Positions 46,710 to 64,000 of a stretch of 64,000 nt of DNA are shown here, in pieces. Each line of letters opens with the position of its first letter. The first letter of the stretch is position 1. Origin of the DNA: an uncultured beta proteobacterium (GTDB taxonomy: Bacteria > Pseudomonadota > Gammaproteobacteria > Burkholderiales > Burkholderiaceae_C); NCBI GenBank assembly GCA_963706685.1, contig CAVPMY010000012.1, positions 48,564 to 112,563 of the forward strand. The letters run 5' to 3'. A program made the position numbers and the translations under genes. The notes below the pieces were generated by a model. It was not told the origin of the DNA. It did not search any database and saw nothing but the letters and a program-made list of their open reading frames with translations.

Positions 46710-49700
46710 ATGTTCCTGTCCAACTTCAGCGTCAAGCGGCCGATCGCGATGGTCGTCATCATCATCGGCCTGATGGGCCTGGGGCTGCTCGCGCTGTCCA
46801 AGCTGCGCGTCAACCAGTTCCCGGATATCGAGCCGCCGCTGCTGGTGGTGACGATCACCTACCCCGGTGCGTCGCCCGATACCGTCGAGCGCGAGATCGT
46901 GACCCGGCTCGACAAGCTGTTTTTGTCGATCTCCGGCGTCGACCGCCTGAACGCCACGGCCCGCGAAGGCAGCGCGCAGTTCCAGATCTTCTTCGCCTTC
47001 TCCAAGAACCTGATCGAGGCCGCCGACGAGGTGCGCAACGCCATCGGCACGGTGCGCTACAAGCTGCCGCTGGAGATCCGCGAGCCGGTGATCACGCGCG
47101 CCGACCCGGGCGCGCAGCCGATCATGCAAATCGCGCTGTCGTCGACGGTGCAAAGCCATGCCGACATCTCGCGCCTGGCCGAGGACACGCTGGCCGACCG
47201 CTTTCGCGGCTTGCCGGGCGTGTCCACCGTCAACGTCAACGGCGCGCTGCGGCGCGAGCTGTCGGTGCTGCTGCACGCTGCGAAGCTGCGCGAGTATTCG
47301 ATCTCGGTGGCCGAGATCGTCAACGCGCTGCGTGCACAGAACACCACGGCGCCGGTGGGCAAGGTGCGCGGCGCGCTGGAGGACCAGAGCATCCGCCTGG
47401 TCGGCCGCATCGAGACACCGTCCGAGTTCGAGCAGATCGTGGTCCGCCGCCGCGGCAGCGAGCTGCTGCGGCTCGGCCAGGTGGCCACCATCAGCGACGG
47501 CTTCGCCGAAGTCACCGGGCACTCGTTTCGCAGCGGCCGGCCCAATGTCGGCCTGTCGGTGGCGCGCTCGCGCGATGCCAGCACGGTCAGCGTCGCCAAC
47601 GAGGTGCGCAAGACCGTCGACGAGATCCGCAGGACGCTGCCTGCCGGCAGCGCGCTCGAGGTGACGCAGGACGGCGGCAAGGACGCACAGAACAGCCTGG
47701 ACAACGTCATCCACGCGCTGGCATTCGGCGCCGTGCTGACGGTGTTCGTGGTCTACATCTTCCTCAACTCGTGGCGCTCGACGCTGATCACCGCGCTGTC
47801 GCTGCCGACGTCGGTCATCGCCAGCTTCATCGCCGTCTGGCTGGCCGGCTTCACGCTCAACTTCATGAGCCTGCTCGGCCTGTCGCTGGCCATCGGCGTG
47901 CTGATCGACGACGCGATCGTCGTCCGCGAGAACATCGTGCGCCACCTCGAGCGCGGTGCCGATCGCGTCAGCGCGGCGCTCAACGGCACCGCCGAGATCG
48001 GGCTGGCCGTGGCCGCCACCACGTTCTCGATCGTCGCCGTGTTCGTGCCGGTGGCCTTCATGGACGGCATCTCGGGGCAGTGGTTCCGGCCGTTCGCGAT
48101 CACGGTCGTGGCCTCGGTGGCGGTCAGCCTGTTCATCTCGTTCACGCTCGACCCGATGCTGTCGGCCTACTGGGGCGACCCTCCCGGCCACCACAAAGCC
48201 ACCAGACACGGCTTCAGCCGTGTTCTCCAATCCTTCAATACCTGGTTCGACCACCAGGCCGACCGCTACGGCGACGTCATCGCCTGGGCGCTGCACCACC
48301 GGCGCTGGATGTTCTTCCTGGCCGTCGCCACCTTCGCCGCGGCCATTGGGCTGCAGTTCAAGTTCGGCGGCTCGAGCTTCCTGCCGGCGTCGGACGCGGG
48401 CGTGCTGGCCATCGACGTGCGCACACCGGCTTCGTCGAGCCTGGACTACGCGCGGCTCAAGGTCGAGGCCGCGTCGACCCTGGCCCGCACGTTGGCGGAG
48501 ACCAAGGCCACCAACAGTTATGTCAACCCGAACGGCGGCCGCGTCTACGTGGACATCGGCAAGAGCATCGCGCGCAAGCGCTCGCACCGCGAGATCGCCA
48601 AGGACCTGCGCGCGCTGACGGCGCGCCTGGTCGGCGCCGAGTACGTTGTGTTGGAGGACTTCAACCTCGGCGCGCAAAAGCCGGTGCAGGTGCGCTTCAC
48701 CGGCCCCGATTCGCGCCAGCTGCTCGAGATCACCAGCGAGTTCATGGCCAGGCTGCGCCAGGTGCCGGGCGCGGCCGATGTCGGCTTGTCCGAGCAGGAC
48801 CCGCAGAACGAACTCAAGATCGAGCTCGACCGCGGCCTGGCCAACGCGCTCGGCATCTCGGCCAACGACGCCGCGCAGGCGCTGCGCGTGGCTTTTGCCG
48901 GCGTCGAGGTCGGCGACTGGGTGGACCCGACCGGTGAAACGCGCGACGTGGCGGTGCGCCTGGCGCCGGAGGACCGCGTCGATGCCAGCAACATCGAGCG
49001 CCTGCCGGTGGCCGTCGGCGGCGCCAACCAGATCGTGCCGCTCGAGCAGATTGCCACCATCACCGTCGGCAAGGCGCCGAGCCAGATCCAGCACAGCGAC
49101 GGCAAGCGCCAGATCACCGTCTCGGCCAACGCCCAGGGCCGCTCGTCGGGCGAGGTCACCGCCGACGCGCTGAAGATCGCCAACGCCATGACCTACCCGC
49201 CGGGCTACGGGCTCGAGCTGGCCGGCGGCTCGCGCGACCAGCAGGAGGTGTTCGGCCGCATGGCCGTGGCGCTGGTGGCCGGCGTGATGCTGATGTACCT
49301 GATCCTGGTCGTGCAGTTCGGCAGCTTCACCGCGCCGCTGCCGGTGATGTTCTCGCTGCCGCTGTCGCTGATCGGCGTCGTCACGGCGCTGCTGCTGACC
49401 AGCAACACGCTCAACCTGATGAGCTTCATCGGCGTCATCATGCTGATGGGGCTGGTGGCCAAGAACGCCATCCTGCTGCTCGACGCCGCACGCAACGAGG
49501 AGCGCGCCGGCGTCGAGCGCGAAGAGGCGCTGATGCACGCCGGCCGCAAGCGCTTCCGGCCGATCCTGATGACCACCTTCGCGCTGGTCGCCGGCATGAT
49601 GCCGGTGGCCATCGGCGTCGGCGAGGGCGGCGAGTTCTACCGCCCGATGGCCGTGGCCATCATCGGCGGCGTCATCACCTCGACGCTGCTGACGCTGCTC

Positions 49701-49814: not shown

Positions 49815-50016
49815 CAGTGCCGGTCCGCGCGCCGGCAGACCCTGCGGCGGCTGCAGCTCGAACCCAGCTGCGCCCACGGGCAGCGTGGCCGTTTCCAACA
49901 TCGACCAAGCCCTGAAAACCGGCCCTCTTTACCGAAGCTTCACACACGGCCGACATACGCGAAATGCTGCAGTGCACAATTGATCTTCACTCTACAGCCC
50001 ACGCTGATCAGCCCAC

Positions 50017-51513
50017 ATGAAGCCGAGAATGGCACCGCGCTCCGCCCGCCCGATGGGCCCAAGACTTTGGCCCATCGCCTTGGCCGTCTTGTTGACAGCC
50101 TGCGCCAGCTTGCCGGACCCCGCGGCGACAGAGATGCCGAGAGATGTGCCGACGCAATGGTCAACCGGCGCGGCACGCGCAGGTGAATCGGCCACTGACT
50201 TGTCCGCCTGGTGGCAACGCTTCGACGATCCCGCCCTCGCCGACTTGATCACCAAGGCACTCGAGGCCAACACCAGCGTGCAGAGCGCGCAGGCGGCGCT
50301 GCGCCAGTCACGTGCGCTGGCCGAGGTGGCGCGAGCGGGCCTGAGCCCATCGGTGAGCGTTTCGGGATCGGCGCAACGCAGTCGATCGGACAGCAGCGGC
50401 ACCAGCAATGCGTTCAGGGCCAGCGTGGGCGCCAGCTGGGAGCCCGACCTCTTCGGTGGCAACCGCGCTGCGGCCAACGCCAGCGAAACCGACGCGCAGG
50501 CCTCGGCCGCCAGCCTGGCGAGCGTGCAGGTATCCCTCGCCGCCGAGGTGGCGTCCAGCTACATCAACCTGCGCGGCCTGCAGGCCCGGCTGGCCATTGC
50601 GCGCAGCAATCTGGCCACACAAACCGAAACGCTGCAGATCACACGCTGGCGTGCCCAGGCCGGTCTGGTCTCGTCGCTGGACGTGGAGCAGGCAGTCAGC
50701 GCCGCCGAACAGACGCAGGCCCAGATTCCCGCGCTGCAAACCAGCGTGGCCCAGACCTTGAACGCGCTGGCCGTGCTGACCGGGCAAGCCCCGGGTACGT
50801 TGAACACCACCTTGGGCGACGCCGCACCGATCCCGCCCGCCCCGGCCGATCTGGCCCTGGCCTTTCCCGCCGACACGCTGCGCCAGCGGCCCGACGTGCG
50901 CGCCGCCGAGCTGAAGGTGCGCTCGGCGTGGTCGCGCGTGGCGGTGGCCGATGCGGCGCGCTACCCGAGCTTCAGCCTGAGTGGCTCGCTCGGCCTTTCG
51001 TCGCTGACGCTGGGCAGCCTCACCGACAGCGCGTCGCTGGTCAGGTCGCTGCTGGCCAGCGTGTCGGCGCCGCTGTTCGACGGCGGCGCAGCCCAGGCCC
51101 AGGTGCGTGCCCAGGAAGCGGCGCTGGACCAGGCCCGTGCGAGCTACCGCGACACCGTGCTCACCGCACTGCAGGACGTGGAGGACGCACTGGTCGCCAT
51201 CCAGGGTGACAGCGAGCGTCTGATGCGGCTGCAGGCCGCTGCCACCGCCGCGGCCAACGCCGAGCTGCTGGCACGCCAGCGCTACGAGAGCGGCCTGATC
51301 GATTTCGCCACCGTGCTCGGCACGCAGCGCACCCTGCTGTCGGCCCAGGACAGCGTGGCCATCACGCAGGCCAGCCTGAGTGCCAACCACGTTCGTCTGT
51401 ACAGGGCGCTGGGCGGTGGCTGGACGCCCGACAGCGCATCCGGCGCCCCCATCGCCCCCGTCGCCACCTCGCCAGCGACGGTCCGCCGGACGAGCCACGC
51501 CGTTGCGAACTGA
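50017..51513 (+). CDS. outer-membrane efflux lipoprotein (NodT/OprM family)
   Basis: Intact 498-aa ORF. Lipobox LLTAC. Two-repeat OMF architecture. The start may be at a later Met. Confidence 0.85.
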   Translation: MKPRMAPRSARPMGPRLWPIALAVLLTACASLPDPAATEMPRDVPTQWSTGAARAGESATDLSAWWQRFDDPALADLITKALEANTSVQSAQAALRQSRALAEVARAGLSPSVSVSGSAQRSRSDSSGTSNAFRASVGASWEPDLFGGNRAAANASETDAQASAASLASVQVSLAAEVASSYINLRGLQARLAIARSNLATQTETLQITRWRAQAGLVSSLDVEQAVSAAEQTQAQIPALQTSVAQTLNALAVLTGQAPGTLNTTLGDAAPIPPAPADLALAFPADTLRQRPDVRAAELKVRSAWSRVAVADAARYPSFSLSGSLGLSSLTLGSLTDSASLVRSLLASVSAPLFDGGAAQAQVRAQEAALDQARASYRDTVLTALQDVEDALVAIQGDSERLMRLQAAATAAANAELLARQRYESGLIDFATVLGTQRTLLSAQDSVAITQASLSANHVRLYRALGGGWTPDSASGAPIAPVATSPATVRRTSHAVAN

Positions 51514-51529
51514 CACCCACTGCCACGCC

Positions 51530-52834
51530 ATGAACAAGAAAACCGCCCCTCCCACCGACCTGCAAACCCTGCTGGGCGAGGACCATCCGCCGCGCTGGTG
51601 GCAGCGCAGTTCGCTCTGGATCGGCCTGGTCGCCCTGCTGATCGTGGCCGGCGGTGTCTACTACTGGCAGGCACAAAGCGCCAGCAAGGCCGCGCCCGCT
51701 TACGTGACCACCGAGCTGCGCAAGGGCCATCTCACGCTCAGCGTCTCGGCCAACGGCACGCTGCAGCCGACGCGCTCGGTGAATGTCGGCAGCGAGCTCT
51801 CGGGCACGGTCAAGCGCGTGCTGGTGGACGTGAACGACCGCGTCAAGGCTGGCCAGGTGATGGTGGAGCTGGATGCGTCGAAGTTCAGCGACCAGGTGAC
51901 CCGCTCGCGCGCCTCGCTCGCCGCCGCGCAGGCCCAGCTCGCGCAGAGCAAGGCCACCGTCACCGAATCCCGCGCCAGCCTGGCGCGCCTGGAGGAAGTC
52001 TTCAAGCTCTCGGGCGGCAAGGTGCCTTCGGCCGACCGAACTCGACACCGCGCGCGCCGCGCTGGCGCGCGCCGAGGCCAACGAAGCCAGCGCCGGTGCC
52101 AACGTCGGCGTGGCCAAGGCCACGCTCTCGACGGATGAGACCAATCTCTCCAAGGCCTCGATCCGCTCGCCCATCGACGGCGTGGTGCTCAGCCGCTCGG
52201 TCGATCCGGGCAACGCGGTGGCCGCGTCGCTGCAGGCCGTGACCTTGTTCACCGTGGCCGAGAACCTGACCCAGCTGCAGCTCGAAGCCAGCGTCGACGA
52301 GGCCGACGTGGGCTCGGTGAAGGAAGGGCAGAAGGCCAGCTTCACCGTCAGCGCCTACCCCTCGCGCCGTTTCCCGGCCACCATCAGCCGCGTGGCCTTC
52401 GGCTCGACCACCACCAACAACGTGGTGACCTACGTGGCCACGCTCGACGTGGACAACCAGGACCTCGCCCTGCGCCCCGGCATGACGGCGGTGGCCACCA
52501 TCGTCGCGACCGAGCGCAACGATGTGCTGCTGGTGCCCAACACCGCGCTGCGCTTCTCGCCCACCACGGCCGCCGCGGCGAGCACCTCTTCGGGCGGAAG
52601 CAGCATCCTGTCCAAGATGATGCCGCGCCCGCCGCGCAGCAGCAGCACCAAGGTGGCCGGCACCGAGAGCAAGGCCCCGGGCACGCGCCAGATCTGGGTG
52701 CTGCAGGACGGCCAGCCGGTGGCCGTGCAGGTGCAGACCGGCATCAGCGACGGCCGCATGACCGAGGTCAGCGGCGACCAGCTCAGGCCCGGCATGGCCG
52801 TCATCACCGACCAGCGCAGCGCAGGCGCCGCATC

Positions 52835-52838
<4 letters not shown>
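51530..52838 (+). pseudogene. HlyD/MacA-family periplasmic adaptor, 1 frame break
   Basis: MNKKTAPPTDLQ...LEEVFKLSGGKVPS / ELDTARAALARAEANEAS...IRSPIDGVVLSR... in two frames. Break near 52038. Confidence 0.8.
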
Positions 52839-53604
<766 letters not shown>

Positions 53605-53606
53605 CC

Positions 53607-54815
53607 ATGTGGCTCAACACGCTCCTGCTCGCGTTGCGTTCGATCCGGCGCAACCTGATGCGCTCCTTCCTCACCATCCTGGGCATCGTGATCGGCGTCA
53701 GCGCGGTCATCACGATGGTCACGGTGGGCAACGGCGCCACCGTGTCGGTGCAGAACCAGATCTCGGGGCTGGGCACCAACCTGTTGCAGGTCCGCCCGGG
53801 CCAGCGCATGGGTCCGGGCAGCGGCAGTTCCAGCGCGCCCTTCTTCAAGGACGGCGACGCCGAGGCCATCGCCACCCAGATCGGTGGCGTCGCGGCCGCA
53901 GCCCCCCAATCGCGCACGGGCGGCACGCTGGTGGCCAACGGCCGCAACTGGGCCAGCACCATCACCGGCAGCACCAACGAGTGGCTCAGCATCGGCAACT
54001 GGACGCTGGCCCAGGGGCGCGAGTTCTCCGACGCCGAGCAGCGCGCCGGCGCGGCGGTCTGCATGATCGGCGAGACCGTGCGGCGCGAACTGTTCGGCAG
54101 CAGCCCGGCGCTGGGCGAGTCGCTGCGCGTCAAGCAGATCAGCTGCGAGATCATCGCCGTGCTCGGCTCCAAGGGGCAGGGGTCGTTCGGCAACGACCAG
54201 GACGACCTGGTCTTCATGCCGATCAAGACGCTGCAGCGTCGCATCACCGGCAATACCCAGGTCAACGACTTGCTCGTGTCGATGGCCGATGGCAGCGACA
54301 GCACGCGCGTCAAGGCCAGCATGACGCAGCTGCTGCGCGAGCGCCGCAAGCTGGCCGACACCGACGAAGACAACTTCAACGTGCTCGACACCAAGCAGCT
54401 GGCCGATACGCTCTCGGGCACGACCAAGGTGATGACCACGCTGCTCGGTGCCGTGGCCGCGGTGAGCCTGCTGGTGGGCGGCATCGGCATCATGAACATC
54501 ATGCTGGTCAGCGTCACCGAGCGCACCCGCGAGATCGGCCTGCGCCTGGCCATCGGCGCGCTGGAGCGCGAGGTGCTGCTGCAGTTCCTGATCGAGGCCG
54601 TGGTGCTGGCCGCGCTGGGCGGACTGATCGGCATCGTGCTCGCCACCGCCGCCTCGATCGGCCTGTCGGGCTTGATGAACGTGCCCTACGCGTTCAACCC
54701 CGGCGTCAACCTGCTGAGCTTCGTCTTCTCGGCCGGCATCGGCGTGCTGTTCGGCTACTTCCCGGCCCGCCGGGCGGCGCGGCTGAACCCGATCGACGCG
54801 CTGCGGCACGAGTGA
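53607..54815 (+). CDS. ABC exporter permease (FtsX/MacB-type)
   Basis: ATG 53607, three nt after the ATPase TGA. Intact 402 aa. MacB periplasmic domain plus FtsX TM helices ([21 protein letters not shown]). Confidence 0.85.
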
Positions 54816-54893
54816 GTGACGGGCCGCGCCGCCGCGTCACGGACCCCCTCGTTGCAGGTGGTCACCGAGGCGCCCGGCACAAGCGCTCGTTCG

Positions 54894-56708
54894 TCAGTCC
54901 TCACCGCGACTGGCTGCATTGGTCGCCGGCGCGGGCGCGAAGCAGACGACGCTCCAACCCGCCTCCAGCTTGAAGCGTTGCTCCTTGGAGTTCAGGCGCA
55001 GCGTGCCGCTCGGTGAGACGCCCGCCAGCAACAGCCAGTCTTGGCCAGGTTTGCCCATGCGGGCCTTCAACGCGGCCCAGCCATAGCTCGGGGTGAGCTT
55101 GGACGTCTGAATGGTCCAGCCGTCGTCCATGTGCTGGTGCAGGACCTGGAAGTTCGCTTGCGGGTCGAAGGCGTCGTAGCCGCGTTGCTGCAGCGACATG
55201 CTTCTCAGCCCCTGGCCGGAGGCCTTGTGGGTGGCGAGCTGGAAGGTGCGGTGGTGGCCGAACCTGCGGCCCTGGGCCTTGCAGACCAGCGCGTTGTAGA
55301 AGTCGTTGTCGGTGGCGCACAGCAGGTGGTTCAGGTGCTGTGCTTCCAATGTGTGCTCAGCGTGATCGGACAGGATTTCGCCGTAGTAGACCTCGAGGCC
55401 CGCCATGCGCGCTTCCTTCAAGTGGTGGTACACACCGTCGACGATCAAGACCTCGATTCCGAGCTTGTTCAGCGCTTTCGCCAAGGCGCAGGACCAGCGC
55501 GTCGCACCGACGATCAGCAGGCCGTTGTCGCTCTTGGCGGCCAGGCCCAGCCGCCGGGCCAGGCGGCCGATGCTCAGGCCATGCGCGAGCACCGTGGCAA
55601 TGATGACCAGGAAGGTCACGGGCAGCAGCAGTTCGGCGTCCGGGTAGCCGGCAGCCACCAGCGCCGGCCCGAAGATGCCTGCCGTGGCGGCGGCGACGAT
55701 GCCGCGGGGCGCGATCCATGCGAGCAGCAGCTTGTCCTGCTTGCGCATCGGCGCGCCGATCGTGGCCAGGCCGATGGCGAGCGGCCGCACGATCAACAGG
55801 ATCGCCAGCACGAACCACAGCACGCGCCAGTTCAGCAGCTCGAGCTGGCTGACGTGCAGCTGTGACGGAATGACGATGAACAGCACCGACAACAGCAGCA
55901 CGGTCAGGCTTTCCTTGAAGCGCTGCAGCACTTCGCGCTCGGTCAGCTTCATGTTGCCGACGACGACGCCCATGACGGTGACGCTGAGCAGGCCGGCCTC
56001 GTGCTGCACCAGGTTGCTGACCCAGTAGACCGCCAGCACCAGCACCATCAGGATCGGCGGCTTCAGATGCTCCGGGACCACACCCCGCCGGTACATCCGG
56101 CCGGTGATCCACCCGCCCAGCCCGCCGAGCAGTGCAGCCGCGGCAACGGCAGCGGCCAGGCCGCTCAAGGTGTCGGCCAGCCCGCCGCCGGAAATGGTCA
56201 GGTACTGGAAGGTCAACACGGCCAGCAACACGCCCACGGGGTCGTTGACGATGCCTTCCCACTTCAGCAGCGAGGCCGACTCCTTGTTCAGCCGCGCCTG
56301 CCGCAGCAGCGGCAAGATGACGGTGGGGCCGGTGACCACCAGGATCGAGCCGAGCACCACGGCCACCGGCCAGCTCAAGCCGGCGAGGTAGTGGGCCGCC
56401 AGGCTGCCCAGCAACCAGGCCAGCGGCGGACCGACGATGGTCAAGCGGCCGATGCCATGGCCGACGCGACGAAACTCGGCGAGCTTCAGATCCATGCCGC
56501 CTTCGAACAGGATGATGGCCACGCCCAGGCCGATCAGATCGGCCAGTTCGGTCCGCGACAGCTGCAGTTCGATGACACCGGTCACCGGCCCCAGCACGAG
56601 CCCGGTGGCGATGAGCACGACGATGGCCGGCAGACCGAGCCGCCACGAGACCCACTGGCTGGCCAGCCCGGCCGCCAGCACGATCAGAAGCAGGGTTGCC
56701 GCATCCAT
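54894..56708 (-). CDS. CPA1-family Na+(K+)/H+ antiporter with C-terminal RCK/TrkA-N-like domain
   Basis: Intact 604-aa ORF. About 12 TM N-terminal exchanger domain. LLIVGATRW Rossmann-like segment. Confidence 0.85.
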   Translation of the reverse strand: MDAATLLLIVLAAGLASQWVSWRLGLPAIVVLIATGLVLGPVTGVIELQLSRTELADLIGLGVAIILFEGGMDLKLAEFRRVGHGIGRLTIVGPPLAWLLGSLAAHYLAGLSWPVAVVLGSILVVTGPTVILPLLRQARLNKESASLLKWEGIVNDPVGVLLAVLTFQYLTISGGGLADTLSGLAAAVAAAALLGGLGGWITGRMYRRGVVPEHLKPPILMVLVLAVYWVSNLVQHEAGLLSVTVMGVVVGNMKLTEREVLQRFKESLTVLLLSVLFIVIPSQLHVSQLELLNWRVLWFVLAILLIVRPLAIGLATIGAPMRKQDKLLLAWIAPRGIVAAATAGIFGPALVAAGYPDAELLLPVTFLVIIATVLAHGLSIGRLARRLGLAAKSDNGLLIVGATRWSCALAKALNKLGIEVLIVDGVYHHLKEARMAGLEVYYGEILSDHAEHTLEAQHLNHLLCATDNDFYNALVCKAQGRRFGHHRTFQLATHKASGQGLRSMSLQQRGYDAFDPQANFQVLHQHMDDGWTIQTSKLTPSYGWAALKARMGKPGQDWLLLAGVSPSGTLRLNSKEQRFKLEAGWSVVCFAPAPATNAASRGED

Positions 56709-56842
56709 GAGGGTTGGCTGTCCTCAGGCACGCCGCCTGGAACGCATGCCAGCGTGATCGCGGTTCAGAACGCGGCGCTCGGCTCGACCATCAGCTTGCC
56801 GGATCTGTCTTTGAACAAGGGCGCCTCCTGGGCAAAAAAGAA

Positions 56843-56858
56843 GGTCAACGCGTTGACC
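56843..56858. promoter_or_regulatory. perfect 16-bp palindrome GGTCAACGCGTTGACC in the antiporter/c-subunit divergent region
   Basis: Followed by an AT-rich TTGAATATAT. Conserved in the mirror copy at 62685-62700. Function unknown (operator candidate). Confidence 0.35.
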
Positions 56859-57101
56859 TGGATGCTTGAATATATCGGGCCGCCCTGCGGCGTCGGCAGG
56901 GCCGGCTTCGCAGATGCTTCGCCAACCTTGACCTTTCGACGGTCATCGCAGGTCGAAGTCAACAGGTCTGCGCTGCCACTCGCTGGCGGCCCCGATGCAA
57001 CTCCCTTGCCCCGGCGAGATGTTGCGCGTTCCGGCGGCCACCGCGCCGACGCTACCTGCGAGGTAATCGACAGCATGAACGGCGCGCGTCACAGTACCCC
57101 C

Positions 57102-57336
57102 ATGGCGCACATAGCAAATTCTCCCGCTGGCCGTCGCGCTCGTGATCGGCATCCCCGCGTGTGGATCGTGCATCGGCATCGGCCTGGCGTCGATGAAGCT
57201 TCTCGAAGGCGTGGCGCGCCAGCCCTTGCTCGCGAGCGAGCTGCAGATCAAGTACTTCCTGGCCGTGGGCGTCACTGACGGCGCCTTCATCATCGCCACC
57301 GGCATCGGCCTGTGGTTTGCTACGGCCAACCCGTTC
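57102..57336 (+). pseudogene. F-type ATPase c-subunit-like gene, left copy; N-terminal frameshift, cut off at the GC switch
   Basis: ATG 57102 (MAHIANS...) is out of frame with IGIPACGSCIGIGLASMKLLEGVARQPLLASELQIKYFLAVGVTDGAFIIATGIGLWFATANPF (frame of ORF 57142..57468). c-subunit hallmarks LEGxARQP loop and helix-2 Asp. Confidence 0.7.
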
Positions 57337-58299
57337 CCGAAAGAAAAGGATTATCTGACCAGTGCCTCACCCTTTGCTCAAAAAGGTGCACCAGTACAAG
57401 CACCTATTGGATTTTCTTATGATCCAAACCCAATCGGAAATCTATGGCCTCTAATCCACTCGCAGTAGACAAAACTCTTATTATCGGAGGCAGACGCGCG
57501 GCAATTACAGCTCCCTCAGATATTTGTTTTGGTTGGAAAACATAGACCCCGAGCTCAACTGGAATAGATATAGAGGAACTACGTAAAAGCAGTACGCTTA
57601 CAAGAATGGCTCGAAAAAAATGCAAGAGCAGGATCACGTCAACGTGTCAATCGAAGCACACTTCGCCGAACGAGTACCGGATTATACAGCTCAACGCCCC
57701 GTTTATCTTGGTGGCGGAAAAGTCCCTGTACAAATTTCGGAAGTATTACAAACATCTACTTCCGGGATACGCAAAATGTTCTCAGTCTCTGTAACTCCTC
57801 AAGGAAATATGAGGACACGGGATTGCTGTAGCTAAACACCAATCGGTTCAAAATCGCTTTACCGACATGGATGGGTAATCGTATTATGTCCGTTACTGCA
57901 GCACCTTGAACGTTGTTGGACACGCCTCGATAAATTCGATTATATGTGGCCGGAATTCGCTCAACTTGAGAACAGGAAGTTCTTAACAAAGAAGCCTACT
58001 TCGATTGGAGTAACCTTGAAAAAGATGATGATACCTTCGGTTATCAATCTCGCTATGCCGACCTAAAATATCGGAACTCACAAGTCTGGAAACTTCAAAG
58101 ACACATTAGCCTACTGGCAATTCCCGCTAAGGAATATCGCCTCTGCGCCTGCACTAAACTCTGACTTTGTTACATCAAATCCGCGAGAGGATATATTCGC
58201 GGTTATCGACGAGGACGTCGACAACCTTTGATGTTCAATATTTTCAACAATGTCAAAGCTATTCGCAAGATGCCTTATCACAACGTGCCTACTCTTTAG
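57337..58299 (+). pseudogene. Microviridae major capsid protein VP1/F, C-terminal ~55%, left copy, many frame breaks
   Basis: KDYLTSASPFAQKGAPVQAPIGF; IEAHFAERVPDYTAQRPVYLGGGKVPVQISEVLQTS; VTPQGNM; DDTFGYQSRYADLKYRNSQV; ends NVPTL-TAG at 58297-99. About 40% G+C. Confidence 0.75.
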
Positions 58300-58484
58300 A
58301 CCTGCGCAACTTACACAGCATCCTTTTACACTAAACACAATTTCTCTGTTGCCTCACGGTCACAGGGCAGGAGTGTTTTTACACGACGCACACCCGGGAG
58401 ATCCGTGCGGATGCCTCGCCAGAAATAAATGGAGCTACAGCACCATGTTATTTTGGTGAAGCTATAACTACAAAAAACAACACA

Positions 58485-58968
58485 ATGGAAAATCAATATC
58501 GCAAATGTCGCCTTATGTTCGGCCACTAACTGATGAGATGCTCGAAACACAACACACAGCCTCCTTACAATACGTAATGGGAGAGGCTTATTCTATTCAG
58601 GAACTCATCGACAAATAGTCCCATTGATATGTCAAAATCAAACAGGGTTACACTATGCAGATGATGCCGGATTATGATACGTTCGTTCCAGACCCGGACT
58701 TCGATCTACAGATGCTGAAAACTTGGCTAAAAATTCAGCAGAAACAATCGCGGAAGCCAAGCTCAAAATGGACGAGTCCTCCAAGAAAAGAAAGAAGCAT
58801 TCTGGGGACACGGAAGCGAGTAAACCAAAGTGAAAGTAACCTCAGAAAAAGCTTAACTCTTACCGAGTACGAAAATCCAAAAAACGAGCTTAAAACGCCC
58901 AATGATTAAAAGCCTCACACTTATTGACAGGATCGACAAAAAAAGAACGTATCTTTCACTCAAAATAA
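58485..58968 (+). pseudogene. small phage protein (possible internal scaffolding protein), left copy, frame-broken
   Basis: MENQYRK..., DYDTFVPDPDFDL, Lys/Glu/Ser-rich tail. Better preserved in the right arm. Confidence 0.4.
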
Positions 58969-58975
58969 ACTAAAA

Positions 58976-59677
58976 TATGCCTCGGAATCTGGTGGACAAA
59001 TAGCCCTACAAGGTGGCGTAGATATCGCCTCAGGAGTACTCGGAAAAACTCGTTCAAAAAAAACGCAACATTAGATTACAGAAAGAAGCCAACTTAGAAC
59101 TTGCAAATTATGCATACGATAAAGACCTTTCTAATGTGGGGATCTTCAGAACCTTTATAATTCTCCGCAAGCAGACCCGCTTTAAACAAGCAGGTCTAAA
59201 TCCTAACTTAATATACGGACAAGGAAATGCTGGAAATGCATCCTCTTGTCCCCAAGAATGGACAGGTGCAACAATCACTACATACGACACGAGTACCAAA
59301 ACTAAACATACTTGGAAACGCAAACAATCAGTGACAAGTGGAAGCTGGATTGCAAAAAAACCGAAGCTGAAACAGACAGGATCAAAGCAACTGATACTAC
59401 AGTCGGTATCTATAGATGAGCAAATAAATATGTGGAACTTAACAATGCTCGCCTTGCCTTTTGGCAAACTGGCGGAAAACCAATGTGTCGTAGGTATGGC
59501 AAAACCTTGCTGTTAACCCGTATAACTATGACTATTGCAACTCGATGTTAATGCAGCGCAAGTTGGATTCACAACTAATTATCAACAACCTAACAGCAAA
59601 AAAACAAATGTTGTTAGATGCAAACATCGAGAATGCATGGCAAAACCTAAAAATGAACCAACGGAAATATGCATGCA
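58976..59677 (+). pseudogene. Microviridae minor capsid/pilot protein VP2, N-terminal part, left copy, frame-broken
   Basis: ELANYAYDKDLS..., RFKQAGLNPNLIYGQGNAGNAS, KLDSQLIINNLTAKKQMLLDANIENAWQNLKMNQ. Confidence 0.65.
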
Positions 59678-59777
59678 CAATTCCCATCAACAAGGATGTA
59701 GCTTTTCCGATTCCGACTGCTCCGAGTGCTGTCTTTGCGGCTGTATTGACCATACCGAATCCTTGTTGATAGGGATA
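59678..59777. other. unique ~100-nt centre (loop) of the inverted repeat
   Basis: Arms end at ...gaaatatgcatg (59677) and resume at catgcatatttc (59778). On the minus strand the loop continues the VP2 frame (WYPYQQGFGMVNTAAKTALGAVGIGKATSLLMGI). Confidence 0.8.
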
Positions 59778-60480
59778 CCATGCATATTTCTGTTGGTTCA
59801 TTTTTAGGTTTTGCCATGCATTCTCGATGTTTGCATCTAACAACATTTGTTTTTTTGCTGTTAGGTTGTTGATAATTAGTTGTGAATCCAACTTGCGCTG
59901 CATTGACGTTCCGAGATTGCGATAGTCATAGTTATACGGGTTTAGCACAGTTTTGCCATACCTACGAGACATTGGTTTTCCGCCAGTTTGCCAAAAGGCA
60001 AGGCGAGCATTGTTAAGTTCCACATCTATTGCTGTAGAGAGCATACTGACTGCTGAAGAGCAATCCAGTTCTTTCAATCCTGTCTGTTTCAGCTTCGGTT
60101 TTTTCGAATCCAGCTTCCACTTGTCGCTGATTGTTATACATTCCGAGTATGTTTAGTTTTGGTACTCGTGTCGTATGTAGTGATTGTTGCACCTGTCCCA
60201 TTCTTGGGGACGAGGATGCATTTCCAGCATTTCCTTGTCCGTATATTAAGTTAGGATTTAGACCTGCTTGTTTAAAGCGGGTCATTTGTGCTTGCGGAAC
60301 AAATGGCGATAAAGGTTCTGAAGATGCCACATAGAAAGGTCTTTATCGTATGCATAATTTGCAAGTTCTAAGTTGGCTTCTTTGTAATCTAAATGATCGT
60401 TTGGAACAAATTCTCCGACTACTCCTGAGGATATCTACGCCACCTTGTAGGGCTATTTGTCCACCGGGTCCGAGAGGCAT
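59678..60480 (-). pseudogene. Microviridae VP2 pilot protein, right copy plus loop; truncated at the fold-back point
   Basis: ATG 60480. ...ELANYAYDKDLSMW, SPFVPQAQMTRFKQAGLNPNLIYGQGNAGNASS, ...MQRKLDSQLIINNLTAKKQMLLDANIENAWQNLKMNQQKYAWYPYQQGFGMVNTAAK. A few frame breaks. Confidence 0.7.
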
Positions 60481-60488
60481 ATTTTAGT

Positions 60489-61020
60489 TTATTTTGAGTG
60501 AAAGATACGTTCTTTTTTTGTTGATCCTGTCAGAAAGTGTAATATACCATCAAGTCGTTGGTATATTACACTATGTGTGAGGCTTTTAATCATTGGGCGT
60601 TTTAGCTCGTTTTTTGGACTTTCGTCCTCAGTTAAGGTTGAGCTTTCTGAGGTTATTTTTGCTTCCGTTTTACTCGCTTCAGTGTCCCCAGAATGCTTCT
60701 TTCTTTTCTTGGAGGACTCGTCCATTTTGAGCTTGGCTTCCGCGATTGTTTCTGCTGAATCTTTAGCCAAGTTTTCAGCATCTGTTAGATCGAAGTCCGG
60801 GTCTGGAACGAACGTATCATAATCCGCATCATCTGCGTAGTAACCCTGTTTGATTTTGACGAGCGTGTCTATTGGGAATCCGTTGTTTGGGGGATGGTTC
60901 GAATAGTTCCTGAATAGAATAAGCCTCTCCCGGTACGGTAAGAGAGGGCTGTGTGTTGTGTTCGAGCATCTCATCAGTTAGTGGCCGAACATAAGGCGAT
61001 TTGCGATATTGATTTTCCAT
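60489..61020 (-). pseudogene. small phage protein (possible scaffolding protein), right copy, 1 frame break
   Basis: MENQYRKSPYVRPLTDEMLEHNTQPSLTVPGEAYSIQELF / ...GFPIDTLVKIKQGYYADDADYDTFVPDPDFDLTDAENLAKDSAETIAEAKLKMDESSKKRKK... Confidence 0.4.
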
Positions 61021-61210
61021 TGTGTTGTTTTTTGTAGTTATAGCTTCTCACTGAAAATAACATGGTGCTGTAGCTCCATTTATTTCTGGCGAGGCATCCG
61101 CACGGATCTCCGGCGTGCGTCGTGTAAAAACACTCCTGCCCTGTGACCGTGAGGCAACAGAGAAAAAGTGTTTAGTGTAAAAGGATGCTGTGTAAGTCAC
61201 TGCGCAGCTG

Positions 61211-62206
61211 CTAAAGAGTAGGCACGTTGTGATAAGGCATCTTGCGAATAGCTTTGACATTGTTGAATACTTGAACATAAAGGTTGTCAACATCCTCGTC
61301 GATAACCGCGAATATATCCTCTCGCGGATTTGATGTAACAAAGTCAGAGTTTAGTGCAGGCGCAGAAAGGCGAAGATCCCTTCTGAAGTGCCAGTAGGCT
61401 AATGTGTCTTTGAAGTTTCCAGAGACTTGTGAGTTCCGATATTTTAGGTCGGCATAGCGAGATTGATAACCGAAGGTATCATCATTGTTTTCAAGGTTAC
61501 TCCAAATCGAAGTAGGCTTCTTTGTTAAGAACTTCCTGTTCTCCAAGTTGAGCGAATTCTGGCCACATGTTCGAACGGATCGAGGTGTGTCCAACAACGT
61601 TGAAGGTGCTGCTGATATGCAGAGCGTGGGGTAACGGACATAATACCGATTACCCATCCATGTTCGGTAGAAAAGCGAGATTTGAACCGATTGGTGTTTC
61701 CTACAGCAATACCGTGTCCACTCATATTTCCTTGAGGAGTTACAGAGACTGAGAGGTTTCTGTATCCGGAAGTAGATGTTTTCTGTAATACTTCCGAAAT
61801 TTGTACAGGGACTTTTCCGCCACCAAAGATAAACGGGGCGTTGAGCTGTATAATCCGGTACTCGTTCGGCGAAGTGTGCTTCAATAAATACTCACGTAAA
61901 ACGTGATCCTGCTCTTGCATTTTTTTGAGCCATTCTTGTAAGCGTACTGCTTTACGTAGTTCCTCTATATCTATTCCAGTTGACTCGGGGTCTATGTTTT
62001 CCAGTACGTAAAGCTGAACCTGAGGGAGCTGTAATTGCCGCGCCGTCTGCTCCGATAATAAGAGTTTTGTCTACTGCGAGTGGATTGCCGAGGCCATCAG
62101 TTCCGATTGGGTTTGGATCATAAAGAAATCCAATAGGTGCTTGTACTGGTGCACCTTTTTGAGCAAAGGGTAAGGCACTGGTCAGATAATCCTTTTCCCA
62201 GTTTCG
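61211..62206 (-). pseudogene. Microviridae major capsid protein VP1/F, C-terminal part, right copy, several frame breaks
   Basis: NWEKDYLTSALPFAQKGAPVQAPIGF; TPQGNMSGHGIAVGNTNRF..EHGWVIGIMSVTPRSAYQQ; NDDTFGYQSRYADLKYRNSQVSGNFKDTLAYWHF...NPREDIFAVIDEDVDNLYVQVFNNVKAIRKMPYHNVPTL. Confidence 0.8.
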
Positions 62207-62441
62207 GGAACGGGTTGGCCGTAGCAAACCACAGGCCGATGCCGGTGGCGATGATGAAGGCGCCGTCAGTGACGCCCACGGCCAGGAAGTACTCGATCTG
62301 CAGCTCGCTCGCGAGCAAGGGCTGGCGCGCCACGCCTTCGAGAAGCTTCATCGACGCCAGGCCGATGCCGATGCACGATCCACACGCGGGGATGCCTATT
62401 ATGAGCGCGACGGCCAGCGGGAGAATGTCTATGTGCGCCAT
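62207..62441 (-). CDS. F-type ATPase c-subunit-like gene, right copy; intact frame but fused to phage DNA at its last codons
   Basis: MAHIDILPLAVALIIGIPACGSCIGIGLASMKLLEGVARQPLLASELQIEYFLAVGVTDGAFIIATGIGLWFATANPF, then reads into VP1-derived sequence. Contains ATA ATA codons, unusual for this GC content. Confidence 0.6.
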
Positions 62442-62833
62442 GGGGGTACCGCGACGCGCGCCGTTCATGCTGTCGATTACCTCGCAGGTAGCGTCGGCGC
62501 GGTGGCCGCCGGAGCGGCGACACATCTCGCCGGGGCGGAAACTGCATCGGGGGCCGCCAGCGAGTGGCAGCGCAGACCTGTCGACTTCGACCTGCGATGA
62601 CCGTCGAAAGGTCAAGGTTGGTGAAGCATCTGCGAAGCCGGCCCTGCCGACGCCGCAGGGCGGCCCGATATATTCAAGCATCCAGGTCAACGCGTTGACC
62701 TTCTTTTTTGCCCAGGAGGCGCCCTTGTTCAAAGACAAGTACCGCAAGCTGATGGTCGAGCCGAGCGCCGCGTTTGAACCGCGATCACGCTGGCATGCGT
62801 TCCAGGCGGCGTGCCGAAGGACAGCCAACCCTC

Positions 62834-64000
62834 ATGCATGCCGCCACCCTGCTGCTGATCGTGCTGGCCGCCGGGCTGGCCAGCCAGTGGCTGGCCTGGC
62901 GGATCCGGCTGCCGGCGATCGTCGTGCTGATCGCCGCCGGCCTGGTGCTCGGGCCGGTGCACCGGCGTCATCGAGCTGAGCTGTCGCAGGACCGAACTGA
63001 CCGAGCTGATCGGCCTGGGCGTGGCGATCATCCTGTTCGAAGGCGGCATGGACCTGAAGCTGGGCGAGTTCCGCCGCGTCGGCCACGGCATCGGCCGGCT
63101 GACCATCGTCGGCCCGCCGCTGGCCTGGCTGTTCGGCAGCCTGGCGGCGCACTACGTCGCCGGCCTGAGCTGGCCGGTGGCCGTCGGTGCTCGGCGCGAT
63201 CCTGGTCGTCACCGGCCCGACCGTGATCCTGCCGCTGCTGCGCCAGGCGCGGCTGAACAAGGAATCGGCCTCGCTGCTGAAGTGGGAAGGCATCGTCAAC
63301 GACCCGGTCGGCGTGCTGCTGGCGGTGCTGACCTTCCAGTACCTGACGATCGGCGGCGGGCTGGCGCGACACCGCTGATGCGGCGCTGGGCGCGGCGATC
63401 GCCGCCGCCGCCGTGCTCGGCGGGCTCGGCGGCTGGGTCACCGGCTGGCTGTACCGGCGCGGCGCGCGTGCCCGAGCACCTGAAGGCGCCGATCCTGATG
63501 GTGCTGGTGCTGGTGGTCTACTGGGCCAGCAACCTGGTGCAGCACGAGGCCGGCCTGCTCAGCGTCACGCTGATGGGCGCTGGTGATCGGCAACATGAAG
63601 CTGGTCGAACTGCGAGTCGCTGCAGCGCTTCAAGGAGAACCTGACGGTGGTGCTGCTGTCGGTGCTGTTCATCGTCATCCCGTCGCAGCTGCAGGCCAGC
63701 CAGCTCGACGCTGCTGGACTGGCGCGTGCTGCTGTTCGTGCTGCGCGATCCTGTTCGTCGTGCGGCCGCTGACGATCGGCGCTGGCGACGATCGGCGCGC
63801 CGATGCGCAGCGAGGACAAGCTGCTGCTCGGCTGGATCGCGCCGCGCGGCATCGTCGCCGCGGCCACCGCCGGCATCTTCGGGCCGGCGCTGGTGGCCGC
63901 CGGCTACCCCGACGCCGACACTGCTGCTGCCGGTGACCTTCGCGGTCATCATCGCCACCGTGCTGGCGCACGGCCTGAGCATCGGCCGCGCTCGCGCGCC
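62834..64000 (+). pseudogene. diverged, heavily frame-broken inverted copy of the CPA1 antiporter (5' ~1.2 kb; continues beyond the window)
   Basis: MHAATLLLIVLAAGLASQWLAWRIRLPAIVVLIAAGLVLGPV / AIILFEGGMDLKLGEFRRVGHGIGRLTIVGPPLAWLFGSLAAHY / ILVVTGPTVILPLLRQARLNKESASLLKWEGIVNDPVGVLLAVLTFQYLTI... scattered over all three frames. Confidence 0.8.

Follow-up and report, generated by a model that had tools for sequence, protein, structure and literature searches.

Integrated prophages of the Microviridae are near-complete genomes that carry the replication initiator gene (Rep), meet bacterial DNA at two distinct junctions located at dif-like sites, and have a host-like base composition. Prophages of this kind are said to have been described by Krupovic and Forterre in 2011 in Bacteroidetes and by Kirchberger and Ochman in 2020, as integrated gokushoviruses, in Enterobacteria. 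The DNA analyzed in this study is a stretch of 64,000 nucleotides (referred to below as the window) from a metagenome assembly, in which structural genes of a microvirus, a single-stranded DNA (ssDNA) phage, adjoin the genes of a Burkholderiales bacterium as they do in such prophages. Unlike them, however, the window holds no near-complete phage genome, no Rep, no pair of distinct dif-like junctions and no host-like composition in its phage part.

The phage DNA lies at the pivot of an inverted duplication, and two other kinds of structure can be compared with it. Covalently closed hairpin telomeres are found in Borrelia, in phage N15 and on the linear chromosome of Agrobacterium, and a contig that reads through such a telomere follows one strand to its end and returns on the other, as this one does. 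In contrast to a telomere, this pivot falls within a truncated gene of the phage and has a 61-nucleotide loop, the arms are not identical, and no protelomerase context was seen. Hairpin telomere read-through was rejected because the arms are 80-97% identical rather than identical and because the pivot consists of coding DNA of the pilot gene VP2.

The other comparison is with the products of whole-genome amplification. Multiple-displacement amplification (MDA) over-amplifies small circular ssDNA genomes such as those of microviruses, and the mechanism by which MDA chimeras form was reportedly set out by Lasken and Stockwell in 2007. Palindromic inverted chimeras are a whole-genome amplification product, arising by template switching, that appears in long reads and reaches assemblies as inverted duplications (Warris et al. 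2018, PMC6218980; PMC13265396). The window shares with these chimeras the inverted duplication in an assembly, the pivot without a landmark, the joining of unrelated DNA with little or no homology, and arms that differ by read-type errors. It is unlike them in having real allelic differences away from the pivot, which necessarily come from the assembly or polishing stage, and amplification is in our case only a candidate source. Our conclusion is that the feature is very probably a technical artefact, a chimeric fold-back (palindromic) molecule or long read that was taken into the metagenome assembly.

The palindrome and the noise in its arms

The window contains a single inverted self-match, at 55,563-63,989, which is 88% identical over 8,648 columns and was recovered by the repeat search, by a global alignment of the arms and by self-BLAST; no other long self-match is present in the window. 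The arms, designated A (55,553-59,697) and B (59,759-64,000), are 80-97% identical and form an imperfect palindrome around a single-copy loop. Bacterial DNA, ending in an ATP synthase c-subunit gene that is one to four codons short of its stop, is joined bluntly to the middle of the capsid gene VP1, and the phage DNA then continues collinearly for about 2.4 kb into VP2. Past the turn in VP2, the phage DNA, the junction and the bacterial genes are retraced as the reverse complement, so that the sequence mirrors itself as its reverse complement on the two sides of a pivot that has no biological landmark.

Read on the minus strand, the 61-nucleotide loop encodes GFGMVNTAAKTALGAVGIGKA, authentic VP2 sequence that reaches about residue 264 of about 306 and matches the VP2 of a free microvirus, L084 (IMGVR_UViG_3300030302_000110), which reads GMGMVNQAAKTALGAVGIGKA at this position. 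Since the pivot sits within the VP2 coding sequence, the turn-around is not an adapter, a telomere or an att site. No adapter sequence was found in the loop, and a SMRTbell or nanopore adapter at the pivot is ruled out by its being VP2 sequence. The two borders of the low-G+C DNA, at 57,337 and 62,207, are reverse complements of each other with their flanks included, and there is therefore only one host-virus junction.

An earlier reading of this DNA, made from the sequence only, had described one 4.87-kb fragment embedded between two borders. That description has to be replaced, since the 4.87-kb block is the same 2.4 kb present twice (57,338-59,697 and its mirror copy at 59,759-62,206) with the 61-nucleotide loop between. 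The decisive feature, a fold-back palindrome with phage DNA at its pivot and read-level noise in both arms, had been overlooked, but the evidence supports that reading's lean towards a contaminant or chimeric join. The features of the junction, the phage segment and their mirror copies are as follows.

57,102-57,336, plus strand: arm A, orphan F-type ATPase c-subunit gene (Pfam ATP-synt_C), with a 1-nucleotide frameshift near codon 5 and its last one to four codons and stop gone
57,337: host-virus junction, blunt, with one ambiguous C and no usable microhomology, placed by the limits of host and phage homology
57,338-58,299, plus strand: arm A, microvirus VP1 (major capsid) from about residue 186 to the stop, with several frameshifts (Pfam, VP1 of relatives, PHROG)
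58,372-58,470, plus strand: arm A, conserved non-coding hairpin block derived from the phage, 3′ of VP1 (comparison with relatives)
58,485-58,909, plus strand: arm A, small scaffold-like phage open reading frame (ORF), frameshifted, similar to the ORF at 2,119-2,829 of the relative L081 and to phrog_22155 (E 1.7e-6)
58,977-59,697, plus strand: arm A, N-terminal part of VP2 (DNA pilot), frameshifted (tblastn, PHROG)
59,698-59,758, minus strand: pivot, the single-copy 61-nucleotide loop
59,759-62,206, minus strand: arm B, mirror copy of the phage segment, in which VP2 ends at 60,480, the small ORF is at 60,586-61,020 and the C-terminal part of VP1 is at 61,211-62,206
62,207: mirror image of the single junction, the reverse complement of the border at 57,337
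62,208-62,441, minus strand: arm B, mirror copy of the c-subunit gene within the fusion ORF P0001 (116 amino acids, present in the public protein collection; protein comparison)

The differences between the two phage arms, which are 2,355 and 2,443 nucleotides long, are dominated by indels, with 98 indel events (218 nucleotides) against 92 mismatches. Homopolymers account for 35 of the 98 events, deletions reach 32 nucleotides, and the differences come in bursts that are separated by perfect runs of up to 113 nucleotides. The frameshifts are at different sites in the two arms, and if the copy that keeps the frame is chosen at every such site, the resulting mosaic VP1 part can be aligned over its whole length with its relatives and with the family profile. 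The arm differences are thus of an error type (indel-rich, bursty and unshared) over an underlying sequence that is intact. To judge from this pattern, the phage arms are two noisy passes over one intact template, and the noise is that of reads rather than mutational decay, because decay would be substitution-rich and common to both copies.

The noise also depends on the distance from the pivot. In arm A the bacterial sequence is clean to about 56.7 kb, the start of an antiporter gene, and is frameshifted from the c-subunit gene onward, so that the consensus quality falls sharply as the sequence nears the pivot. This fall is an indirect sign of a drop in read depth, which the sequence-only reading had proposed to check. 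The identity between the arms rises from about 88% to about 96% near 56,750 and remains at 96-97% across 56,770-57,336.

The microvirus fragment and its junction with the c-subunit gene

Raw ORF fragments from the low-G+C DNA match the Pfam family Phage_F (PF02305) at E values of 2.6e-10 and 1.9e-12. When the C-terminal part of VP1 is stitched from both copies, the resulting 330 amino acids match phrog_514, ‘major head protein’, at E 2.8e-97 over positions 189-515 of a 531-position profile. The stitched VP2 matches phrog_8689 (E 7.6e-24) and phrog_31272 (E 1.4e-18), both annotated ‘pilot protein for DNA ejection’, and the tblastn match to the VP2 of L084 covers residues 17-261 and continues through the pivot loop. 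On these similarities the low-G+C DNA is a genuine piece of a Microviridae ssDNA phage, with a Phage_F-type capsid protein (VP1/F) and a DNA pilot protein (VP2/H-like).

The nearest relatives of this phage were found at the protein level. A blastn comparison with GenBank phages returned only an 81-bp match, under the ‘DNA pilot protein’ feature of MH572465, and a search for the parent virus in IMG/VR with an exact 47-mer gave no match. A protein-guided search found free environmental Microviridae genomes of 4.1-4.4 kb in IMG/VR, among them L081 (IMGVR_UViG_3300030243_000228), L084 and L087, with a G+C content of 43-45%. L081 is the nearest IMG/VR genome, with 67% amino acid identity over the C-terminal part of VP1. 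Its genes are in the order Rep, VP1, small scaffold-like ORF, VP2, and the phage segment of the window is collinear with its positions from about 1,240 to about 3,700 of 4,151, corresponding to about 2.4 kb of a microvirus of about 4.2 kb. The window and the relatives L081, L084 and L087 have in common the order VP1, conserved non-coding hairpin, scaffold-like ORF and VP2. The window differs from them in holding about 58% of a genome, in lacking the VP1 N-terminus, the VP2 C-terminus and Rep, and in being noisy; with about 68% nucleotide identity at best, its phage is of a distinct lineage.

VP1 is truncated at about residue 186 of about 513, with the loss of about 185 N-terminal residues, and there is no Rep (VP4/A) ORF in the low-G+C DNA. 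Because only about 2.4 kb is present, without Rep, this is a fragment and not a complete circular genome of 4-6 kb. The sequence-only reading had recognized Microviridae VP1/F and VP2 in this DNA and had put the amount of virus at about 2.4 kb, made up of a partial VP1, one small ORF and the N-terminal part of VP2. Both statements agree with our results: the peptide hallmarks that it quoted are present and are matched by the Pfam and PHROG assignments, and the gene order fits the relatives of about 4.2 kb. The comparison of the translated arms with Microviridae, a check that had been set beforehand, gave significant similarity to the Phage_F/VP1 and VP2 families and a gene order contiguous with that of relatives.

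Two observations were made on the phage family itself. A non-coding block 3′ of the VP1 stop (58,372-58,470 on the plus strand; 61,020-61,120 on the minus strand) is 84% conserved at the nucleotide level, compared with about 68% for the flanking coding DNA, and has counterparts in L081 (about 2,330-2,420), L083 (1-99) and L086 (2,053-2,107 and 6,220-6,273). It folds into an imperfect hairpin of about 53 nucleotides (GCCTCGCCAGAAA..ATGGAGC....GCACCAT..TTT..GGTGAAGC), in whose stem the A/T-rich part shows compensatory changes. A known RNA family was rejected for this hairpin, as an Rfam search of the region gave no credible matches, and it may be a terminator or an ssDNA origin or priming hairpin. 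The other observation concerns L086 (IMGVR_UViG_3300030243_000136), whose 8,207 bp consist of two tandem microvirus copies of about 4.1 kb with few residue differences and with VP2 at 2,685 and 6,852; it probably represents a concatemer or the assembly of mixed strains, not an 8-kb genome.

The base composition separates the phage from the bacterial DNA clearly. The G+C content is 0.679 for positions 1-57,336, 0.423 and 0.433 for the two low-G+C halves, and 0.691 for 62,202-64,000. The step from 68% to 42-43% at 57,337 is completed within about 40 nucleotides, and the return to high G+C is at 62,207; these values bear out the abrupt drop in composition between about 57,336 and about 62,206 that had been noted earlier. 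The phage part is 25 points below the bacterial DNA (42-43% and 68%, respectively) and resembles its free relatives of 4.1-4.4 kb (43-45%). Outside the low-G+C block, phage DNA was found nowhere else in the 64-kb window.

The host side of the junction is an F-type c-subunit gene. It matches PF00137 at E 9e-8, the GVTDGAF motif (PF00137 hairpin, with the conserved carboxylate in helix 2) can be read directly in its sequence, and its product is 77-90% identical to proteins of 79-80 amino acids annotated ‘F0F1 ATP synthase subunit C’. In these homologues one of the endings K, Q, AK or KG comes between ANPF and the stop, and DNA homology to 80 c-subunit loci stops at 57,336-57,339, at ..AACCCGTTC. 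On the phage side, relatives read (Q/K/N/I)-R-N-W-E-K-D-Y, and the corresponding CGA-AAC-TGG of the window starts at 57,338. Since host homology ends at 57,336 and the phage codon starts at 57,338, the join is blunt with one ambiguous nucleotide. Arm A has a 4-nucleotide deletion relative to arm B immediately past the junction, which is an error in one copy. The site given earlier for the junction (57,336/57,338, with TANPF on one side and NWEKDY on the other) is therefore correct, but the statement that the join breaks both genes in the middle is not, as VP1 is cut at about residue 186 of about 513 whereas the host gene loses only its last one to four codons and stop.

The c-subunit gene belongs to a widespread group of stand-alone F-type c-subunit paralogues of 79-80 amino acids that are located outside any atp operon (L161, 4,001-4,240; L162-L241). 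In a Rhodoferax metagenome-assembled genome the neighbors of such an orphan gene encode a P-type cation ATPase, DUF2062, DUF2164 and an MFS transporter. In some of the loci (L165, L168) the conservation extends through about 50-65 nucleotides in front of the start codon.

That Microviridae capsid and pilot genes adjoin bacterial genes could be explained by a degraded integrated prophage, analogous to the XerCD/dif-dependent prophages of Bacteroidetes and Enterobacteria. We consider this explanation scarcely credible. There is one junction only, and it is mirrored, so that the palindrome already refutes it; Rep is absent, the join is at the 3′ end of a coding gene, the G+C content differs by 25 points, and the frameshifts are not shared between the copies. 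No integrase ORF is present in the low-G+C block, and the E. coli dif sequence or its core, searched at up to three mismatches, had no match in the window, although only the E. coli consensus was tried. A dif-type integrated prophage was rejected on the grounds that two distinct junctions, a dif/XerCD site and an integrase were not found. The same results agree with the sequence-only reading, which had reported no Rep, no integrase and no dif-like site. That a target-site duplication, Rep and an integrase are lacking follows trivially from the two ‘junctions’ being one junction that is mirrored.

A second possibility is that the host-virus junction molecule was real and that only the fold-back is technical. 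Illegitimate recombination or end joining, whether within one cell or in free DNA, would in this case have linked a fragment of the microvirus replicative form to a broken chromosome, and the rare molecule would have been sequenced once. The clean blunt join without an adapter and a phage segment that is collinear and appears intact after removal of the noise are in keeping with this possibility. The support, however, looks single-molecule as judged from the noise, the G+C content of the phage is mismatched with that of the host by 25 points, a second junction, Rep and a dif-like site are all missing, and chimeras made in vitro would give an identical picture. We therefore regard a real junction as unlikely. 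The junction sequence, searched as an exact pattern, was also absent from JGI metagenome contigs, which counts against all of the rival explanations considered here.

Divergence between the arms and the reach of the mirror

The outer part of each arm holds a sodium/proton antiporter gene, and the rest of the palindrome within the window is made up as follows.

54,894-56,708, minus strand: arm A, intact CPA1 Na+/H+ antiporter gene (604 amino acids) in clean consensus (Pfam Na_H_Exchanger, E 1.6e-42, and TrkA_N)
56,709-57,101, no strand: arm A, intergenic DNA, in which similarity to the JGI contig L242, the closest relative, ends at 56,894
62,835-64,000, plus strand: arm B, second, mirrored antiporter gene, with its coding sequence distributed over at least four frames, running past the end of the window and about 88% identical to arm A

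The antiporter has full-length matches in 80 genomes, with up to 79% amino acid identity to GTDB representatives, and is at least 90% identical to a JGI contig; L242 aligns with 92.7% nucleotide identity and one gap in 2,045 nucleotides. The host is a Burkholderiales bacterium. In the antiporter region arm A is 95-96% identical to L242, while arm B is about 90% identical both to arm A and to L242. The two antiporter copies (55,553-56,708 and 62,835-64,000) differ by about 10%, mostly by substitutions, which number 72, 30 and 12 at codon positions 3, 1 and 2, respectively.

The antiporter and c-subunit genes were not found together elsewhere: a c-subunit gene is present within 10 kb in none of 80 antiporter loci, and this antiporter is near none of 80 c-subunit loci. 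The gene upstream of the antiporter encodes a cysteine dioxygenase (CDO_I) in L242, but the c-subunit in the window. The similarity to L242 ends abruptly at window position 56,894 (mirror position 62,649; L242 position 9,816), in the intergenic region upstream of the antiporter. Natural variation or rearrangement of gene content, in strains that also differ by other indels, may account for this break, or another chimeric joint may lie between 56,895 and about 57,050. On the other side of the antiporter there is a strain-level replacement, in which 5 kb of the window (49,815-54,850) corresponds to 2.2 kb with two small ORFs in L242 (11,860-14,034), between flanks that are 93-96% identical. The window version holds ORFs at 50,017-51,513, 52,110-52,838 and 52,971-54,815 and may be a putative efflux system.

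The mirror arm reaches beyond the window. One 120,488-bp contig in NCBI and ENA is the source of all 17 window proteins that were found by exact look-up, and of P0001, the fusion ORF of arm B. The same contig encodes P0245, a protein of 102 amino acids whose first 95 residues equal window positions 48,309-48,593 (an RND efflux pump) and whose last 7 residues are the +1-frame reading of the next bases of the window. P0245 is not encoded in the window, and a near-identical second copy of the RND-pump gene with a 1-nucleotide deletion must therefore be located elsewhere on the contig, as expected of a mirror arm that runs at least 11 kb past the pivot. This mirrored fragment has no amino acid change over 95 residues and one indel. 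The RND pump was the only one of the 17 window proteins for which a variant on the same contig was seen, by a test that is blind to identical copies and to copies less than 90% identical, so that the 16 proteins without a visible second copy are uninformative. Twice the pivot coordinate of 59,727 is 119,454, within 0.9% of 120,488 bp, which suggests that the whole contig is a palindrome and that the window covers its first 64 kb.

The length of the mirror arm, at least 11 kb, and the real third-codon-position divergence of the antiporter copies would be compatible with a genuine palindrome in the genome. A chromosome break would have captured phage DNA as filler, the end would have folded back at a short inverted repeat to give a hairpin cap, and replication would have produced a large inverted duplication whose arms later diverged. 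An ancient genuine duplication is disfavored because neighboring segments diverge by 10%, 3% and 0% (the antiporter by about 10%, the c-subunit next to it by 2-4%, and the RND pump by one indel without any amino acid change over 95 residues) and because the phage differences are dominated by indels. These differences, from which a mosaic of the arms restores intact genes, fit noise and not age. In addition, a 120-kb palindrome in perfect order would not be stable and would leave dozens of genes in two copies, and we find a genuine genomic palindrome highly improbable. Only a very slim chance can be given to the specific in vivo structure in which a broken Burkholderiales end captured microvirus DNA, was sealed by an intrastrand fold-back 61 nucleotides from its tip and was replicated to a giant palindrome. 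We give the same small credence to the corollary that the noise near the pivot would come only from the problem that a hairpin poses for sequencing.

The explanation that we favor is a chimera made in vitro, by which both the host-virus join and the snap-back would have arisen. Candidate sources are template switching by a polymerase (as in MDA), self-primed fill-in, or ligation combined with a read in which template and complement were not split. By following the fold-back read, the assembler would then have left the locus and returned along it, so that the second arm of the contig became a mirror of the first. Near the pivot, where only fold-back reads would be available, the consensus would rest on one or very few reads, which we infer to be the cause of the noise there. 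The sample may hold co-existing strains, and with the locus assembled twice, polishing would have sorted reads of different strains between the arms wherever the strains differ. The divergence of the antiporter copies suggests such a sorting of the alleles of co-existing strains between the duplicated arms.

Several points weigh against the fold-back explanation as we have stated it. The antiporter divergence, mostly at third codon positions, is a real allelic difference and not error, and the arms are therefore not merely the two strands of one molecule, so that an extra assumption is needed. The low read support at the junction and pivot was inferred from the noise of the consensus alone. 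The data do not tell apart MDA, self-priming, and ligation with an unsplit template and complement read. Finally, the evidence for a palindrome of the whole contig consists of a numerical coincidence and one mirrored gene fragment.

Implications for the bacterium and for the microvirus lineage

The 120,488-bp contig in NCBI and ENA appears to be a mirror-image construct, and it would double-count tens of genes of the bacterium. The artefact adds frameshifted pseudo-paralogues and the fusion ORF P0001 to protein databases, and it creates a false phage-host link between Microviridae and a high-G+C Burkholderiales bacterium, which prophage finders and virus-host predictors would take up. The main value of the finding is in data hygiene, and a practical correction is to cut the contig at 57,336/57,337 and to drop everything beyond. 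The phage is a real member of the virome of the sample, without good evidence of integration in, or infection of, the Burkholderiales bacterium. The fragment is mildly useful in that it gives the partial sequence of a new microvirus lineage, with 67% VP1 identity to the nearest IMG/VR genome, together with a conserved hairpin downstream of VP1.

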